A stretch of 64,000 nt of DNA from positions 1 to 64,000 of the forward strand of contig CBFIJH010000010.1 in assembly GCA_965662895.1 (NCBI GenBank), written 5' to 3'. The translations under genes and the position numbers were made by a program. The notes beneath the pieces were generated by a model. It did not search any database, was not told the origin of the DNA, and was given only the letters and a program-made list of their open reading frames with translations. This stretch comes from Candidatus Poseidoniaceae archaeon. Its GTDB lineage: Archaea > Thermoplasmatota > Poseidoniia > Poseidoniales > Poseidoniaceae. Position 1 is the first letter of the stretch; every line of letters starts with the position of its first letter. Shown in pieces: positions 22,252 to 51,416 of this stretch.

Positions 22252-25200
22252 TTGACCTCGGATGTCTTGCCGATTCAAATGCCGGCACCACAGAGGAAAC
22301 CCCAGCAAATGGTCTCAATAGCAAACGACGCTATTTTTGCCAGTGAAGAGGAAGAAATACCGTTCAAGCCCGTCATCGTCCGGGCTCCAGGCGATACGAA
22401 AGGCGATTCACTCGAACGATTTACTGAAATCATCATGTTTGGCGTTGCAATGCTTGCAATATGGACAGGACTTTTGGGAATCGCATTCAGTGAGAATGTG
22501 GGTGAAGAAAAATTCATGATTCTCTTCATTGGAGGTTTTGCCTCCTCCGCTATTGCTCTGTTTATGGTCGAGTTGCAAGCAAAGAAGAACGAGTATCGAC
22601 TCATGATTTCTCAAAATTATCTCTTGGGTGTTTCGTTCTTCTTTATGGCAGTTGGAACACTTTGGGGCCTTCGATTCTTGGGAGGATATTTTACCCTACA
22701 AGGGTTTGAATTCGATGGAAGTGAATTTACCTTCCTCGGTGATGTTGGTTTCGATGATGCAGAAAACGAGATGTTCCTTGCCGGCCCGAATATGATTTAC
22801 GTTCAGGCACTGGGAGCTGCGGCGATGTGGTTCGTGCATCGACGAATCCTTGATCGATACAAAGGTGACACGTCTTTTGGTTGGGCAGTGGCAAGTTACA
22901 TCCCACTCGGATTGTTGCTCGTTGGTGTTGGCACTTGGATTGATTGGGCCAATAACGAAGTTTCCTACCCGCTTGGGATATCGATTGTCGGTTTGTGCGG
23001 TCTTGCGATGTACAGCGCATTGATGTCGAATAAATCCATCAATTTCGCAGTCGTTAGCGTCGTTTCAGGATTTATTCCCATCCTCTATGAAATCCTCAAC
23101 GAAAACGCACCTCCTGGCGGCGAAGGTGGCGCAGTTTCGCTGCTTGTTTTCATTATCATCATTCAAGGATATCTTGCAGGAAATGAACGTTTGAAGCAAA
23201 CACTGGCTGAGAAAATGTCCTTCTTCATGATTGGAGCTGTTGTCATTGCAATGCTCATCGCGAGCATTCAAAATTGGAATCTTATCCTTGGCCCATTCAA
23301 ACCAAACGAACTTGGAAGCGATGGTTTGGCGTCGTTGGTCACCCTCCCGGTTGCGCTTTGGATTACCGTCTTGTGCGCCTATTTCCCCGCAACGCACAGA
23401 AACAGGGTTCCTGCAATGCCAATTGGACTGGCGTTCTCGTTGTGGACACTCAATGGCGATGAAGCAATTCTTCCTTGGGTCATCTCCATGGTTATGATAT
23501 CGTACATGCTCTTTTTTGCCGAAGCAACCCGAAAATGGGTTGCAAACTTTACCATGTCTGCTCTGGCCTTCTCTTACCTTTTCAGCGACCAGATCGGATA
23601 CGGTGTTGACCAAGTCGAGATGGATGCTGCGATTGCAATAGGCATCGTCATTATCGCCGAAACGGCTCGGCGACTCGAAAAAGTATCAATTTGGAGCAGT
23701 GTACAAACCGTCACATTCATCGCACTCAGCAGCACAATTCTCGATTCGCCGTATTGGTTTGTTACCTGGCTGTTCGTGATTTACCTTCTCGGCATGGTCT
23801 ACGAGTCAATGCTCAGGGCTCGAAAAGGAGACGATATGGAAAAGCGTAATGCCACGCTTGCACTTCTCACGTCCCTGATTGTAAGCTCAGGACTGTTGTT
23901 GGCCAAGAAACTCGAAATTCCAGATGCGTACCAAATTGCTGGATTGAATGGCCTCTCTCTGGAATACCTGGTCCTCGGCGTGATTGTATATGCAATCTTC
24001 AACACTGTTCGCGATGTCGAAGTCGACATCGGTCGATTGTTATCGCTTCTTGAAACGAAGGCTTCAGGAGCATACACCTACGATTCTGAGACAAATGCAT
24101 GGTACATCAAAGAGAAGCACGTCAAAGAAAAGGATGAAGTGGCAGCGACTGAAGAGGGTTCATTCGGATCGATTGGCCGTATTTCACTTGCATTTTCGCT
24201 GTTGGCAGTAACAATTGGTATCAGCACACTCGATTCCTCCTTGCTGGAAGGTGACACATTCTATCTCGTCGGGTTGTACATTATACCAATCGGTATCCTG
24301 TTTTGGGAAATCAATTCGATGGACGTCCTTTCCTCGCAAAGCCGGATGGTCGGGGCGTTTATGTTGCTCATTGTTGCTGCCTCATCGATGCCAATGATGC
24401 TCCAAGTTGATCCCTCAGATGGGTTGTTTCGGGCAGGTATTTTGTATGACCTCATTTTCTTGTCAGCCCCGATTGGAGCCTTCGTCCTGATCAACAAACG
24501 AGGACTTGACAGAGATCATCTCAGCCGCCCCGCCGATCAGGTCATGCTTTGCGTCCTTTTGGTCATCGGAATGATGGACCAATCCGGCGGTTTACTCTTC
24601 CTCAGCATGTACGGTCTTGTTGCCTTAGTGGCGCTCCAATACCGACATCATGGCGTGACGATGCTGGCACCAATAGCGACCATCTCGATGCATTGGCTAG
24701 GAGACCACGGCCTCGTATATTCTTTCTTGGATTCGTTCATTTTCTCAAATCCGGATCACATTTCAGAGATTCGAGTCCTTTGGTTTACGCGTGTTACTGG
24801 GATGCTTGTTGCTGCACACATGTTGATGCCAATGGCATGGAGCATTCTTGACCTTCAAAAGGACGAATATGTGGAAAACCCATTCCCTTGGTTCTTACCC
24901 ATGGTCTGGTTCTTGTTTGCAGTGTGGGCTGTTCTCCCAACTGCATCATGGTTGCCTCTCGTCGCATGTATCTTTGGCCTCCTGAACTCTTGGGTTCGTG
25001 GCGACATTAATCTTGTACCACTGCTGTCAGTTGGAATCATTTTCTCGTTCATGATTGGATTTACAGATGGAGGATACTTCACTGGAGAAATCTTTGGCTA
25101 TTCCATGCTCTTCTCTGGCATCATCATTTACCTGCTTTGGTTCGCGAATTCCCGTGGAATAATGGAAATGAACGTCGTTGACAAAGCTCGATTGGATGCA

Positions 25201-26280: not shown

Positions 26281-27657
26281 TTATTCATCCTTGAAGATTG
26301 CAATGCGATCTGAGACAAGAGTCTCAACGGTTGCAGTAGGGTAGAGACCCCAGTAGGCTTCACGGGCTTCTTGATTGATGTTCATGCAAAGAACAACATC
26401 ACCGGGCCGGTCATCCATCGCTTGTGTTCCGTTAAGATGCATGAGCATTGGTTCAATGTTGGACATGTTGACAACACCCCAACCCACCTGAGTGCATGGA
26501 GCAACAGGTGAAACTGGCGTGGTTCCAGACAGGGGATCCCACGTTGCAAACGAAGGATACCATGCAGACAAATTCAATGCATTACGAACCTCTGCGTTTC
26601 GAATGGTGAAGGATTCACCATCACTCGTCGTTCCGTTAACGAGATAACCGCCTCGTTCTGTCGAAGCACCAGAACTGACATCATTGAATTCTTCTCGAAG
26701 TTCTTGAAGAATGAAGGAGAGAATACCAGCGGTTCGAGGCGTTGCAAAGGACGTCCCTGACGTCTCGTGGTAACCGTCTGTATCGTCATGATTTGGCAAC
26801 ACTTGTGTCCAATCGGCTGCAATATCTGGATAGGAACCACTCATGGTCTCTTTCTGGTCGTCGCCTTCCTCAGCGTATCCTGCAATACCAATGGACCATG
26901 GTGGACCCGCAGTTGCATCTTGAACGGCCGGTGAAGGTGTGTTATCAGCGGCACCAGTGTGAATCTTGTTGTTGCCCACAACTGCTTCGTATGTCCCTGT
27001 CTCAATTCCTGGTACTGGAAGCGAACCAATCGCACCAAACGACGTGGAAATGATGTCAACAAGGGGTTGATTCGAAGCGGCCAGAACGGCTTCGGTTGAG
27101 AAACCTTCAACAAAGAAAATGACTGCATCTGGGTTTGCGTCCAAAACTGCACCCGTAACCGCCGTTCCGTGTCCATCTGAAGGGTCGTCAAGAATGTGGA
27201 TATCCGTGCCTCCATCAGGCGATGTTCCAATGATTTTCGTTCCGTAAAAGTACACAATATCGGATGTCGTGATGTTATCCCAACAGTATTCTTTATCGGC
27301 TTGATATCGCTCTTCCCATGAACCTTCGAGCGTGATGTAGCACGTTTTGGTCACACCAAGCGATTCAAGCAACCAGTTTGGATAGACCTCGTCGGTACGG
27401 AAATGATCGTGATAAACGTTGATACCCGTATCAACAGGTGCTACAACAGAGTAGTGCCTCCAATCCGTATCTAAGTTAGCCTCTCCACTTCTGCTTTGGG
27501 TTTCATCCGCATCATCCCATGTCATTTGCCAGTAAACCAATGAGCCCGCAAGACCGAGAAGAATGACAACGAGTAACGTACGTATTTTAGCAAAGAAAAC
27601 CCAGAAGTCAAACACTTCAACACCGACATCAAGTAGGACATCAGCAGCATCGACCAT
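26281..27657 (-). CDS. membrane-anchored S8 family peptidase
   Basis: N-terminal TM; PVDTG, GHGTAV, AADN, GTSFATP catalytic motifs. Confidence 0.8.
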   Translation of the reverse strand: MVDAADVLLDVGVEVFDFWVFFAKIRTLLVVILLGLAGSLVYWQMTWDDADETQSRSGEANLDTDWRHYSVVAPVDTGINVYHDHFRTDEVYPNWLLESLGVTKTCYITLEGSWEERYQADKEYCWDNITTSDIVYFYGTKIIGTSPDGGTDIHILDDPSDGHGTAVTGAVLDANPDAVIFFVEGFSTEAVLAASNQPLVDIISTSFGAIGSLPVPGIETGTYEAVVGNNKIHTGAADNTPSPAVQDATAGPPWSIGIAGYAEEGDDQKETMSGSYPDIAADWTQVLPNHDDTDGYHETSGTSFATPRTAGILSFILQELREEFNDVSSGASTERGGYLVNGTTSDGESFTIRNAEVRNALNLSAWYPSFATWDPLSGTTPVSPVAPCTQVGWGVVNMSNIEPMLMHLNGTQAMDDRPGDVVLCMNINQEAREAYWGLYPTATVETLVSDRIAIFKDE

Positions 27658-46656: not shown

Positions 46657-47532
46657 TTACTCCGAAGCCTCATCTGCCGTTCTAGACTTCATCAGAAAGT
46701 TCAGCCATTTTGGTTGGCGTACTTCTCCGTCATCCGTCACGAATGAACGAATCATTAACGAAAGCAAGTCAATGATGATGACCACAATAAAGATGAGAAT
46801 GAGTAAAGCAAGCACCTTGTCGTATTGTAAGAGTTTGAGATACGTATTGATGTAGAAACCAATACCCCCTGCTCCAACAAGACCAATCACTGTACCATGT
46901 CGAACATTGTATTCAAACATAAACATGAGTTGGCTAAGCAGATGATTCCCCGTCTCGGGAATGACGACGGAAGTGAAGATGGTTGGATGAGAAATGCCCA
47001 TCGCTTTGCTGACATCAAGAGAATCACTGGGCATGCCCTCAAAGGCCTCGTACTGTAATTTTCCAAGATAGCCAACCGTGTAGAAGGTCATGGCGAGAAC
47101 ACCCGCCAAAGGACCGACGCCGATAACGATGACGAAGATTATTGCCCAGATGAGTGACGGGAGGCTTCGGATGGCCGATAGCACAATTCGGAATACTAGA
47201 GCAATGGGCATAGGCATCAGGTTTTTTGCTGCAAAAGAGGAAAGAGAAAGTGCTCCAATGAACCCAAGAATTGTGGCAACAAAGGCGATTTTGATTGTTT
47301 CAACCATGCCTACGTATCCAACCGAACAAAGCAATTCAATGTCTTTCTCACAAACGGGATACGATTGTGCTTCCAAAACAGACCAGTTCGGCGGCCACAT
47401 GCTGTCATGAATGAAGGTTGACAGGTTGTCAAATCCTCCACCTAATCGCCCCCAATCACCAGCCAAATCGCTGAGAACGAGAAGAGTAAGGAACAACAAA
47501 CCGCCGGCAGCGGCGATGAAGCCCTTTCTCAT
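46657..47532 (-). CDS. ABC permease, PhnE-like
   Basis: ETIKIA, IRSLPSLIWA, GKLQYEAFE, FEYNVRHGTVIGLVGAGGIG; ATGA overlap with the ATPase stop. Confidence 0.88.
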   Translation of the reverse strand: MRKGFIAAAGGLLFLTLLVLSDLAGDWGRLGGGFDNLSTFIHDSMWPPNWSVLEAQSYPVCEKDIELLCSVGYVGMVETIKIAFVATILGFIGALSLSSFAAKNLMPMPIALVFRIVLSAIRSLPSLIWAIIFVIVIGVGPLAGVLAMTFYTVGYLGKLQYEAFEGMPSDSLDVSKAMGISHPTIFTSVVIPETGNHLLSQLMFMFEYNVRHGTVIGLVGAGGIGFYINTYLKLLQYDKVLALLILIFIVVIIIDLLSLMIRSFVTDDGEVRQPKWLNFLMKSRTADEASE

Positions 47533-48206
47533 TCCTCTTCCTCCTGCATTTTCTGCCATTGTTCGATGGACATGTCGAGAAGTTGTTTGTCTTCGATCAA
47601 CCAAATTCTTGTGGCAATCATCTCAACATTCTCTTCATGATGCTCAACCATTATGATCGAATTTCCTGATTCGATGAGGGTTTGTACTGCTTCGGTAACA
47701 ACGTCCACGGTTGAATGATCGAGTTCGCTCAAAAATTCGTCAGCCAACAAGAGCTTTGGCCGTTGTGCCAAAGCACGAGCTGTTGCAACCCTTCGCATTT
47801 GCCCACCTGATAATCGCCGAATAGGCTCACGGATTTTCTCTTTCAAGCCGACCGCGGAAAGAGCTGACACAACTCGTTCCATTCGCTCTTCTCGCTTCCC
47901 TTTCAGCAGTGGAAGACTGGCTCGTGCCCCCAGATTTACATTGTGATAGACGCTTGCGTGACGAACCAAACCAAGTCGTTGTGGAATGTAGCCCAGTCCA
48001 CCTTGTGATGAAAGTTGAAGTTCCAACGTACCCTGTCGTGGAGGAACCAAGCCTGCAATGGTTCGAACAAGCGTGGTCTTTCCGATGCCTGATGGGCCGA
48101 GAACAGCGATAATCTCACCAGAGTGAACCTCCAATGAAATATCCCGAACCAAATCTTCCTTGAATCCGATGCTCAAATCCGAAATGGTGAGGAGTGGTTC
48201 AGCCAT
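47529..48206 (-). CDS. ABC ATPase, PhnC-like
   Basis: GPSGIGKTT, LSGGQMRRV, LLADE, VEH; start placed at ATG 48206. Confidence 0.9.
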   Translation of the reverse strand: MAEPLLTISDLSIGFKEDLVRDISLEVHSGEIIAVLGPSGIGKTTLVRTIAGLVPPRQGTLELQLSSQGGLGYIPQRLGLVRHASVYHNVNLGARASLPLLKGKREERMERVVSALSAVGLKEKIREPIRRLSGGQMRRVATARALAQRPKLLLADEFLSELDHSTVDVVTEAVQTLIESGNSIIMVEHHEENVEMIATRIWLIEDKQLLDMSIEQWQKMQEEEE

Positions 48207-48223
48207 GTGCATCAACCTCTTGT

Positions 48224-49372
48224 TCATGATGAGATGTCGTATTTCGTATCGAAATAGTTCGAAATTCCAGGTATTGAACCGATGAGTGAACCATATATTC
48301 CGAGGTGTGTTTCCGTATCTGCTTGAACCAAACCATTCGTATTGAGGATGTTCGAAAGGATGTAATCGCCACATTGTGAGCGAGATGTGTCTTCATCAAC
48401 GTTGTTCTCATTCACATCAAGGCATCCAGTAACAATGGAATCACCAACGACGCCATCTTCGATGTACGTCTCATTGTTGAGTGCAAGTAGGGCATCAAGT
48501 ACGAGACGTTGCTCATCTTCATCGAGGAAATCAGGATTAAACATAACTGGATGCGAAGGCGCTTGACCATAGGACGGTAAGAGGATGTACTCATCCAAAC
48601 CAAGACACCAATCCTCGTTCGCAGCAGGGTCGTCGAATCCACAATAGGTCGAAACCGATGAATCCTTGACAAACGCAACATCACCTGTCCCATCCGACAA
48701 ACAGTGAAGGGCACCACCATAGGACGAATATGGTGTGCCCGAATCCGGAATGCTTGCATCCTCACTGAAGTACGAAAAGATGGTTGATCTGAGCGATTCA
48801 ATGTCATCTTCAGGACCGACAACAGGTGCGTATCCTTCCGAGATAAGGAAACCCATTGGAAGCAACATTCCCGCCGACTTCAGCCATCCTGTATGGCAAG
48901 GCGTTGTTCCTTCCAGTGTTGCAAACGGGTCTGTTGAAGCGTTGTCATCGAGGTAAGCGTTTGCTGCATCTGAACCGTTGAGAACAACTGCATGCGCATT
49001 GTAATAGCTACGGCCATCGGATTTTGTATCGGCTGCGAGAACTTCCAATCCATATTGTTGCCAACCCATCCATGCAGCTCCTGCATCCATGAACGCTATA
49101 TCCGCATGGCCAAAGCGCAATGCTTCAATGATTGCTCCCTCTGAAGTGATCGGATAGAGTTCAACTTCAAGACCGGTCTGTTCGCTCACAAAATCTGCAA
49201 AAATTTGTGGGTTGGCATCGACATTTGTATAGTCGTCTTTTATTTCAAATGCGATTCGGAGGGTTTCAAGTTCGGAATCTTGACCGTCGTCCCCAATGCA
49301 GCCAGCAAGCGATCCTAAAACAATCAAGAAGGCGAGCAGTATCGATATTTTTGCCGTTTTCCACATCATCAC
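48224..49372 (-). CDS. ABC substrate-binding lipoprotein, PhnD fold, with full transferrin-lobe Fe(III)/carbonate motifs
   Basis: Lipobox LAGC; ADIAFMDAG, YYNAHAVV, CHTGWLKSAG..LPMG, YSSYGGALHCLSDGTGDVAFVK, QAPSHPV. Confidence 0.85.
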   Translation of the reverse strand: MMMWKTAKISILLAFLIVLGSLAGCIGDDGQDSELETLRIAFEIKDDYTNVDANPQIFADFVSEQTGLEVELYPITSEGAIIEALRFGHADIAFMDAGAAWMGWQQYGLEVLAADTKSDGRSYYNAHAVVLNGSDAANAYLDDNASTDPFATLEGTTPCHTGWLKSAGMLLPMGFLISEGYAPVVGPEDDIESLRSTIFSYFSEDASIPDSGTPYSSYGGALHCLSDGTGDVAFVKDSSVSTYCGFDDPAANEDWCLGLDEYILLPSYGQAPSHPVMFNPDFLDEDEQRLVLDALLALNNETYIEDGVVGDSIVTGCLDVNENNVDEDTSRSQCGDYILSNILNTNGLVQADTETHLGIYGSLIGSIPGISNYFDTKYDISS

Positions 49373-49379
49373 CTCACCG

Positions 49380-49430
49380 TTTTCGGTCGCCCTAAAAAAC
49401 TGAAGTATATAATTTTAGGGTTCCCTAAAA
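49380..49430. promoter_or_regulatory. TATA box flanked by two 18-bp palindromic operators (DtxR/MntR-like)
   Basis: 49413-49430 TTTTAGGGTTCCCTAAAA (perfect 8-bp arms); 49380-49397 TTTTCGGTCGCCCTAAAA; minus-strand TTATATA at 49412-49406 between them; SD GGTGAGG next to the start. Confidence 0.75.
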
Positions 49431-50342: not shown

Positions 50343-50405
50343 ATGCGTTTGGGAGTACGCCGTGAAAAACAAAGCATTTGAGACATGTGGCTCCTAAGCC
50401 GTAGC

Positions 50406-51416
50406 ATGGGGGATGGTATTGCTTTGCAGTTTACCTCCATCGGGTACCGCCATGAAATTTCAGATCCAACATGGTACGATCCGTTCAAGAAACGCAAAGG
50501 GGCAGGCATCTCACATGTCGATTTGTCCATCCACAAGGGAAGTATTGTAGGACTGGTTGGCACAAACGGAGCGGGAAAAACCACGCTCTTGCGAATGATT
50601 TCAGGCATATTACCGCTTGAAGAGGGGAACGCTTCCAAAAACGACCTCCCTCTTGAAGTCGAAACATTACGTTCAATCGTTGGGTTCATGCCTGAACAAG
50701 TTCGCTGGTCAGGCCAACAGACCGTGCGTCAGACAATTATCGAATTCGCACATTTACGTGGCTGCTCAGTCCAATCAGCGACGGATGTCCTCAACGTTGT
50801 TGGATTAAAGAACCGAGCCGACGTTTCGCTTGATTCACTGAGCCAAGGAATGCGACAACGCCTCTCGCTTGGGGTCGCATTGCTCGGGTCGCCTGAACTC
50901 CTCGTACTTGACGAACCGTTTAACGGAATGGATCCAGTGGCGATTGATGCGTTCAAACGATTGTTACGAACCATGGCGAAAAAAGGGATATCCATCGCCA
51001 TTTCAAGCCACCACTTGACCGAATTGGATGGTCTCGTGGATACGATTGCTTTGCTTCATCGTGGCCAATTGTTGGCCCATGAAACGGTTGAATCGCTTCA
51101 ACAATCGCTTGGTTTTGATCGTGTGACTGAACTGGTTCTTGATAGAAAAATCCCATCCGAAATGGAGAATACACTGAATGTACTCGATTACAGCGAGACT
51201 ACAAAGCAGCATCGCTACATCATCAAGTCAGCACATCCAGAACTTCTCAACCAATTGGTGGAAGATGGTTTTCATATCTCCACATGGCGGGTTGTTCCTC
51301 CAACACTGATTGAATTGCTCTGTGCTGCAACCGGACTTGATCGAGAATCGATTGGCATGGATGTTGAACAAAGCAGTATGATTCCATTGAGGCCCGTCGG
51401 AGGTGAAGAAGAATGA
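50406..51416 (+). CDS. ABC-2 type exporter ATPase
   Basis: GTNGAGKTT, LSQGMRQR, LDEPFNGMDP, SSH. Confidence 0.92.
   Translation: MGDGIALQFTSIGYRHEISDPTWYDPFKKRKGAGISHVDLSIHKGSIVGLVGTNGAGKTTLLRMISGILPLEEGNASKNDLPLEVETLRSIVGFMPEQVRWSGQQTVRQTIIEFAHLRGCSVQSATDVLNVVGLKNRADVSLDSLSQGMRQRLSLGVALLGSPELLVLDEPFNGMDPVAIDAFKRLLRTMAKKGISIAISSHHLTELDGLVDTIALLHRGQLLAHETVESLQQSLGFDRVTELVLDRKIPSEMENTLNVLDYSETTKQHRYIIKSAHPELLNQLVEDGFHISTWRVVPPTLIELLCAATGLDRESIGMDVEQSSMIPLRPVGGEEE

Follow-up and report, generated by a model that had tools for sequence, protein, structure and literature searches.

Genes at the locus

The window, by which we mean the whole 64-kb stretch of DNA that was analysed, carries on its minus strand an operon for a substrate-binding lipoprotein, an ABC transporter ATPase and an ABC permease (Table 1). 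The binding protein is both transferrin-like and PhnD-like: it matched Pfam Phosphonate-bd (3.1e-20) and Transferrin (1.8e-17), it matched TIGR01098 below the cut-off, and its best solved-structure relatives by sequence were lactoferrins and transferrins (1e-20). In the alignment with transferrins, the blocks that carry Asp, Tyr, Tyr and the anion-site residues, which we take to form the Fe/carbonate site, line up. The permease scored 213.7 bits on the NCBIfam PhnE model, whose cut-off is 216.7 bits, and no NCBIfam model was reached at cut-off by the ATPase. Because the ATPase ORF overlaps the preceding gene, its listed start is probably over-extended.

The binding protein occurs in two forms among relatives. 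In many species of the genus it is encoded by a single frame of about 686–754 aa with two tandem domain copies (L014-L022 and L026-L032; G035:C129, G028:C75, G011:C2 and others). This two-lobed form resembles the eukaryotic transferrins, and the source genome has a one-lobed form of 381 aa. At the distant two-lobed loci the neighbours were glycosylation genes, and no local regulator was found there or beside the operon.

Upstream of the operon lies the gene for a 313-aa membrane protein, which matched no Pfam or NCBIfam family and whose homologues adjoin the boxes described below in related genomes. As listed (50372–50385), this ORF is separated by a gap of 12 nt from a divergent ABC ATPase gene on the plus strand (50385–51416); the membrane protein probably starts at an ATG ATG ten codons in. 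At two loci in relatives (L073:3433-3690 in G027:C16 and L069:12271-12318 in G005:C2) the binding-protein gene lies elsewhere, and the gene for the membrane protein is still followed by twin boxes with a TATA-like stretch, with no more than a short ORF (about 60 codons) behind them.

Table 1. Positions of the genes and promoter elements discussed in the text. Bare numbers refer to the window; other positions carry the handles of genomes (G), contigs (C) and loci (L).
Feature	Position	Strand	Remarks
Upstream membrane protein, 313 aa	49431-50372	minus	Syntenic with the operon; stop codon TAG (49433-49431) touches box 1
Box 1	49413-49430		Plus-strand reading TTTTAGGGTTCCCTAAAA; perfect 8+2+8 palindrome; core 16-mer 49414-49429
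Putative TATA box	49412-49406	minus	TTATATA (plus strand TATATAA)
Box 2	49380-49397		Plus-strand reading TTTTCGGTCGCCCTAAAA, minus-strand reading TTTTAGGGCGACCGAAAA; imperfect palindrome; core 16-mer 49381-49396
Predicted transcription start zone	49381-49385	minus	About 26 nt past the TATA centre, within the right arm of box 2
Shine-Dalgarno-like GGTGAGGTG	49370-49378	minus	Right before the ATG at 49369
Substrate-binding lipoprotein, 381 aa	48224-49369	minus	LAGC lipobox; first gene after the promoter
ABC transporter ATPase	47529-48374	minus	Pfam ABC_tran 2.4e-28
ABC permease, PhnE-like	46657-47604	minus	Pfam BPD_transp_1
DtxR homologue	G000:C19:11447-12112		About 222 aa; outside the window
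FEA1-related lipoprotein genes	L069:8785-10251 (G005:C2), L073:5505-6953 (G027:C16), L059 (G033:C41)		
nuo boxes	L070:3047-3081 (G005:C11), L074, L075, L076, L046, L053, L057		

Promoter architecture

The gap between the membrane protein gene and the binding-protein gene, which lie on the same strand, measures only 61 nt and holds two palindromic boxes together with a TATA box. Read along the minus strand, the order is the TAG stop codon (49433–49431), box 1, TTATATA, 8 nt, box 2, GGTGAGGTG and the ATG at 49369. A preliminary description of this DNA had reported twin palindromes bracketing the TATA box of the operon, one at the position of the BRE and the other between the TATA box and the likely transcription start. 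Both sequences were found at these coordinates and the layout was confirmed, with the qualification that box 2 is an imperfect palindrome, whose outer arms are complementary at 6 of 7 positions. Box 1 touches the stop codon of the upstream gene and lies directly upstream of the TATA box, at the BRE position; box 2 follows the TATA box and precedes the start codon. A repeat search picked up both boxes, as a direct repeat whose copies start 33 nt from each other and as inverted repeats.

The position and composition of TTATATA suggest that it is the TATA box. In archaea the centre of the TATA box usually precedes the transcription start by about 26 nt, and at this distance transcription would begin at about position 49383, inside the right arm of box 2, so that box 2 would cover the start site. 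At the position of the Shine-Dalgarno-like sequence, orthologues carried GGAGGTG or GGAG.

Rarity and conservation of the boxes

The pattern TTAGG-N(0-8)-CCTAA occurred once in the 64-kb window against 0.02 occurrences expected, and it was matched in 2 of 100 shuffles. When the 18-mer TTTTAGGGNNCCCTAAAA was searched with up to 3 mismatches in the source genome (1,864,816 bases), only the two boxes were returned. The degenerate 16-mer TTTMGGNNNNCCKAAA (TTTMGG-N4-CCKAAA), searched without mismatch, gave three genome sites, namely both boxes and a third at C19:17428. Other spacings between the arms were almost absent from the source genome (0 sites for N2, 1 for N3, 0 for N5 and 1 for N6). At ≤2 mismatches and outside long ORFs, 8 sites including the three exact ones were found in the source genome, with 8–18 for control patterns, and hence no excess.

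The palindromes had been expected to recur upstream of orthologues of the operon, and they did so both within the genus and beyond it. A match to the binding protein was present in 49 of 61 related genomes. The best 30 matches were all from the same genus, and the 28 of them that had upstream sequence made up the genus promoter set. Every one of the 28 promoters carried at least one box at ≤1 mismatch, at -60 or -62 from the start codon, and 22 carried two boxes, at -60/-27 or -62/-28. The remaining 6 belonged to the distant two-lobed forms, in which one box is followed by CATTCATAT. When the 22 twin-box promoters (all distinct) were aligned, the arms of the boxes were invariant or nearly so, whereas variation was seen in the central 4 nt of both boxes and in the spacer that follows the TATA box. 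In box 2, TTTTAGGG and CCGAAA were unchanged in all 22 sequences, and the TATA column block read TTATATA, CTATATA, TTAAATA or TTATGTA throughout (22/22).

Outside the genus, 13 of the 14 genomes with a match were examined, the fourteenth match lying at a contig end, and 12 loci had usable upstream sequence, the region of the remaining one being truncated. An exact box preceded the binding-protein gene at 10 of these 12 loci, a box with ≤1 mismatch at 11, and a box with ≤2 mismatches at all 12. Several of these loci showed the box-TATA-box layout with a spacing of 42–45 nt.

At one of these 12 loci, L110 (G045:C3:171700-172600), both boxes read TTCAGG-N4-CCTGAA around TTTATAC. The change is mirrored in both arms of both boxes, as expected for a site that is read by a symmetric dimer.

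Other genes preceded by the motif

The preliminary description had suggested that the motif might also precede iron genes elsewhere in the genome. The genome scan agreed with this, since its three sites are the two boxes of the operon and the promoter of a ferredoxin gene. In 37 genomes of the genus, 133 motif sites were found as opposed to 18 for a reversed control pattern, and every genome had at least one site. The third exact site of the source genome, C19:17428, lies 68 nt before the start of a gene for a 91-aa two-cluster ferredoxin. Ferredoxin loci in the genus, picked by protein match and not by the motif, carried an exact box at -68 or -69 in 30 of 30 cases; outside the genus the box was present at 1 of 16 ferredoxin loci.

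A second conserved block, (C)ATTCAAGTA(C/G)(T/G)TGATGAC, is situated downstream of the ferredoxin box, at about -40 to -20 from the start of the gene (G000:C19:17376-17445; loci L116-L145).

FEA1 is a family of algal low-iron-inducible, phytotransferrin-like proteins. Genes for a related lipoprotein (Pfam Fea1; NCBIfam NF038033, 351 bits) were found in relatives with two boxes 19 nt apart upstream, and no FEA1 homologue was found in the source genome. Two boxes with the same 19-nt distance stood about 100–130 nt before nuoA of the nuoA-D operon in 7 related species. The nuo promoter of the source genome (G000:C5:20700-20930) had no boxes, and the leader downstream of it (GGGAACGCTTATGGAGGG...) was kept. 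The motif in relatives also preceded a divergent gene pair with a sugar-nucleotidyltransferase gene, as well as a gene for a 764-aa fusion of an M28 peptidase and a ZIP transporter (L071:602-2896 in G005:C20; also L068 in G032:C9), which starts 9 nt from the box TTTAGGCCACCCTAAA. The ferredoxin, the FEA1-related lipoprotein, nuo and the ZIP-domain protein support the view that the genes behind the motif are iron- or metal-related.

The arrangement of boxes differed by target: at the ferredoxin gene the box is further upstream, and at the nuo and FEA1-related genes two boxes are nearly contiguous. A TATA-adjacent box at nuo would mean that an Fe-S-rich complex is repressed in ample iron, unless the factor activates there. 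The factor might have a dual role, repressing uptake genes and activating those for iron-rich proteins; this would be physiologically sensible, and the TroR regulator of Haloferax, discussed below, offers a precedent.

Candidate regulator and the metal sensed

The window itself holds no repressor gene, as had been noted earlier; the sole DtxR-family gene sits on contig C19. A profile search of the source genome returned this one protein with both DtxR-family domains (PF01325, 3.7e-17; PF02742, 9.9e-17), so that the homologue sought for the boxes does exist in the genome. The only other match to PF01325 in the genome, a weak one, was a TFE-alpha-like protein, and the Fur family gave no match in the source genome, which is 92% complete. 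Of 61 relatives, 60 had a DtxR homologue, and the exception was a genome with a completeness of 72%.

With a rough probability of 0.72, the boxes serve an iron-repressed uptake operon as operators, to which a dimeric metal sensor of the DtxR family binds, the candidate being the only DtxR homologue in the genome. The homologue is named as the putative binder because of the analogy with Haloferax TroR; the metal that it would sense and the direction in which it would regulate are predicted as well. It is unlikely that the boxes, as real operators, are bound by a factor of another family that senses iron or another signal, so that the likeness to the TroR site would be convergent. Such a factor would be consistent with the fact that nothing links the DtxR homologue to the boxes physically or by co-localisation: none of 9 Poseidoniales loci had a box within 3 kb of the DtxR gene, and hence no autoregulatory link appeared there. 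Nor does the distribution of the homologue discriminate, as it is found in nearly all genomes regardless of whether the binding protein is present. Against a factor of another family, the boxes share half-site and spacing exactly with a DtxR-family site that has been mapped by experiment, the arrangement of the pentamers suits IdeR/DtxR dimers, and the DtxR homologue is the only recognisable metal sensor in the genome, no Fur having been found.

Two distant bacterial DtxR-family genes, in a Bryobacteraceae MAG (L097:2958-2973) and a Hyphomicrobiales MAG (L089:2670), are each preceded by a box of this kind (ATTAGGCATGCCTAAA), some 30 nt upstream of the coding region that was matched. These boxes hint at a possible autoregulation of the genes in those bacteria.

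The DtxR homologue gives mixed signals as to its metal. A Cys in the segment HETACRLEH was present in 6 of 6 aligned Poseidoniales homologues (that of the source genome and those of five relatives), and Glu stood at this position in two Mn-type solved relatives and in two distant bacterial homologues. We take this Cys to occupy the Cys102 position, which favours Fe over Mn in DtxR. By a hand alignment to the DtxR numbering, the homologue seems to have Glu at the positions equivalent to Met10 and Gln43, and its N-terminal ligand position appears to be acidic and Mn-like. The best NCBIfam matches of the protein were MntR models, all far below their cut-offs, and its nearest solved relatives include MntR, SloR and ScaR. 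These matches and the acidic position would suit a homologue that binds to these boxes in response to Mn2+ or some other divalent metal, which the operon would then import. We consider this improbable in view of the Cys in all six Poseidoniales homologues as opposed to Glu in Mn-type relatives, of the different motif of the Mn regulator SirR of Haloferax, which has 0 sites in the source genome, and of the targets, which are transferrin-like, FEA1-like, ferredoxin and nuo genes. The protein sequence by itself does not decide between the metals. Iron is indicated by the target genes, and Fe is more likely than Mn to be the metal sensed.

Alternative functions of the boxes and of the operon

It is very unlikely that the palindromes act as RNA, box 1 as the terminator hairpin of the upstream gene and box 2 as a hairpin of the 5'-leader. 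Box 1 does stand immediately after a stop codon, and a folding energy of -21 kcal/mol (z = -2.67) was computed for the 81-nt stretch. Taken singly, however, the two hairpins are weak (-7 and -4.5 kcal/mol; z = -1.68 and -0.65), and among 14 pairs in the 22 aligned sequences none showed a compensatory change: every departure breaks the pairing, and in box 2 one pair does not form in any of the 22. There was also no Rfam match, and copies of the 16-mer stand elsewhere both in divergent intergenic regions and at a long distance before unrelated genes.

Just as improbable is a phosphonate or phosphite importer under phosphorus control with the boxes belonging to a phosphate-responsive regulator, a reading in favour of which only the descent of the transporter from PhnD/PhnE speaks (Phosphonate-bd and the sub-threshold TIGR01098 match on the binding protein, and the near-miss of the permease on PhnE) and that is opposed by lactoferrins and transferrins as best solved relatives, by the aligned motifs of the presumed Fe/carbonate site, by the match of the motif to the site of an iron regulator, and by the presence of no phosphorus-related gene among the others identified behind the motif. 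The earlier judgement in favour of metal rather than phosphorus uptake is supported.

Proposed regulation and its significance

For the preferred reading, in which the DtxR homologue acts on the boxes as an iron-responsive regulator, the following scheme can be proposed. Each box is made up of two CCTAA-type pentamers in inverted orientation, their centres 9 bp apart, and would present the footprint of one DtxR/IdeR-type dimer. Being 33 bp apart, or about three helical turns, the boxes would lie on one face of the helix. In cells with enough Fe2+, the regulator would carry the metal, sit on both boxes and block the recruitment of TFB/TBP and RNA polymerase. When iron is scarce, the apo-protein would leave, and the TATA promoter would drive expression of the transferrin-like binding protein, the ATPase and the permease. 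The match to the TroR site probably marks the operon as an iron-uptake system that is switched off in ample iron. The preliminary description had proposed a strong promoter shut off by Fe or Mn; what stands of this is that the motif is that of a DtxR-family iron regulator, with Fe likelier than Mn, and repression would be expected by analogy.

The boxes bear on the function of the binding protein as well. A conserved iron-repressor site provides regulatory evidence, independent of homology, for iron rather than phosphonate uptake. The predicted iron regulon is small, comprising the uptake operon and the ferredoxin gene in the source genome and the FEA1-like, nuo and ZIP-domain genes in relatives. 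At somewhat less than even odds, we suggest an iron stimulon that spans the order Poseidoniales and whose sole universally conserved target is the transferrin homologue with its PhnC/E-type ABC importer. In related genomes this homologue also takes the tandem-duplicated, two-lobed form, of about 720 aa, and FEA1/phytotransferrin-like lipoproteins are encoded behind boxes of the same kind. Prokaryotic relatives of both eukaryotic iron-carrier families, transferrin and the FEA1/phytotransferrin-like proteins, would then be iron-regulated uptake receptors. Marine group II archaea are abundant in the plankton and uncultured, and if this suggestion is true, the operon transcript would be a marker of iron stress in situ for them.

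DtxR-type operators before metal-uptake genes are already known, and the motif itself has been published for Haloferax. What is new is its assignment to the Poseidoniales, the retention of a single operator sequence in two archaeal lineages that are far apart, and a target that consists of a transferrin homologue with a phosphonate-type importer. In the literature searched, we found no paper on a DtxR-type regulon in marine group II, and none of those listed was relevant to iron and transferrin in Poseidoniales; the search on prokaryotic transferrin origins gave nothing useful. Leyn and Rodionov reportedly described DtxR regulons in Archaea in 2015, and motifs of a related kind may be given there for further archaeal orders.

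Comparison with known metal-dependent regulators

Bell et al. (1999) are said to have described MDR1 of Archaeoglobus fulgidus, a DtxR-family repressor. Its operators reportedly extend over the transcription start of an operon for a metal ABC transporter, where they keep polymerase from being recruited. The likeness to the proposed regulator is that of an archaeal metal-dependent repressor; the operators of MDR1 reportedly differ in lying at and downstream of the start, rather than flanking the TATA box.

The motif of SirR, the SirR/MntR-type regulator of Hfx. volcanii, is TTTwGA-N4-TCwAAA and has been linked to Mn transporters (PMC10783522). It shares with the present boxes a 6-N4-6 palindrome and T/A-rich outer arms, but its inner bases are GA/TC rather than GG/CC. 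With these inner bases and with 0 sites for TTTwGA-N4-TCwAAA in the source genome, a SirR/MntR-type Mn operator was rejected.

The actinobacterial DtxR/IdeR operator is described as a 19-bp sequence, TTAGGTTAGSCTAACCTAA, with four CCTAA pentamers and two dimers (PMC8464063). Each IdeR monomer reads one CCTAA pentamer, so that a single dimer is bound where a site has two of them (PMC8464063). The boxes here differ from the 19-bp iron box, as each has two pentamers with 4 nt between them instead of four; two single-dimer sites 33 bp apart take the place of one site with two overlapping dimers, and an archaeal TATA/BRE promoter takes that of a bacterial -10/-35 promoter. Nevertheless, pairing alternate pentamers of the IdeR 19-mer would yield TTAGG-N4-SCTAA, which is the geometry of the boxes. 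An IdeR site has also been predicted before complex I genes (PMC8464063) and may be likened to the nuo boxes in relatives.

TroR, the DtxR-family iron regulator of Hfx. volcanii, has a ChIP-seq motif given as TTTAGGC-NNN-CCTAAAANAN (PMC10783522). Tandem motifs about 30 bp apart lie in a siderophore promoter, where either one is enough for Fe- and TroR-dependent repression, and TroR, which is itself constitutive, represses uptake genes and activates the storage gene dpsA (PMC10783522). Three DtxR paralogues in Hfx. volcanii and 206 motif instances are reported as well (PMC10783522). As a positive control, our motif pattern was run on 40 kb of pHV3 and matched exactly at 24996, 25305 and 26607 and with 1 mismatch at 26643. 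All four sites fell within the two intergenic gaps of the siderophore cluster, so that validated TroR sites were recovered, and a control pattern gave zero matches on the same 40 kb at ≤1 mismatch. The sites before the binding-protein gene of pHV3 are 36 nt apart and flank TTTTAA just before the ATG. From the gene order we infer that this gene is HVO_B0047, and TTTTAA would, from the gene order and the legend of the paper, be its TATA box.

The differences between the two systems concern the genes served and the numbers. The TroR promoter serves siderophore genes, whereas here a transferrin-like protein and a PhnE-type permease are served, in the Poseidoniales (Thermoplasmatota). Three DtxR paralogues compare with one here, and the 206 reported motif instances with 3 sites here. 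The likenesses extend from the site to the promoter. The half-site and spacing are the same, TTTAGG-N4-CCTAAA, box 2 having a CCGAAA arm. In both systems tandem sites about 30–36 bp apart surround an A/T-rich, TATA-like stretch just before the gene for an uptake binding protein, an iron-uptake promoter has multiple sites, and the regulator gene is seemingly without autoregulation. Three features of an archaeal TroR/Idr-type operator were found: a semi-palindrome, tandem sites about 30 bp apart in the promoter of a probable iron-acquisition operon, and a DtxR-family gene in the genome. Of the DtxR/MntR-like operators named in the preliminary description, the DtxR-family type is thus retained, and the SirR/MntR type gives way to that of TroR and of a single IdeR dimer. 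One DtxR-type operator sequence is common to Halobacteria and Thermoplasmatota.
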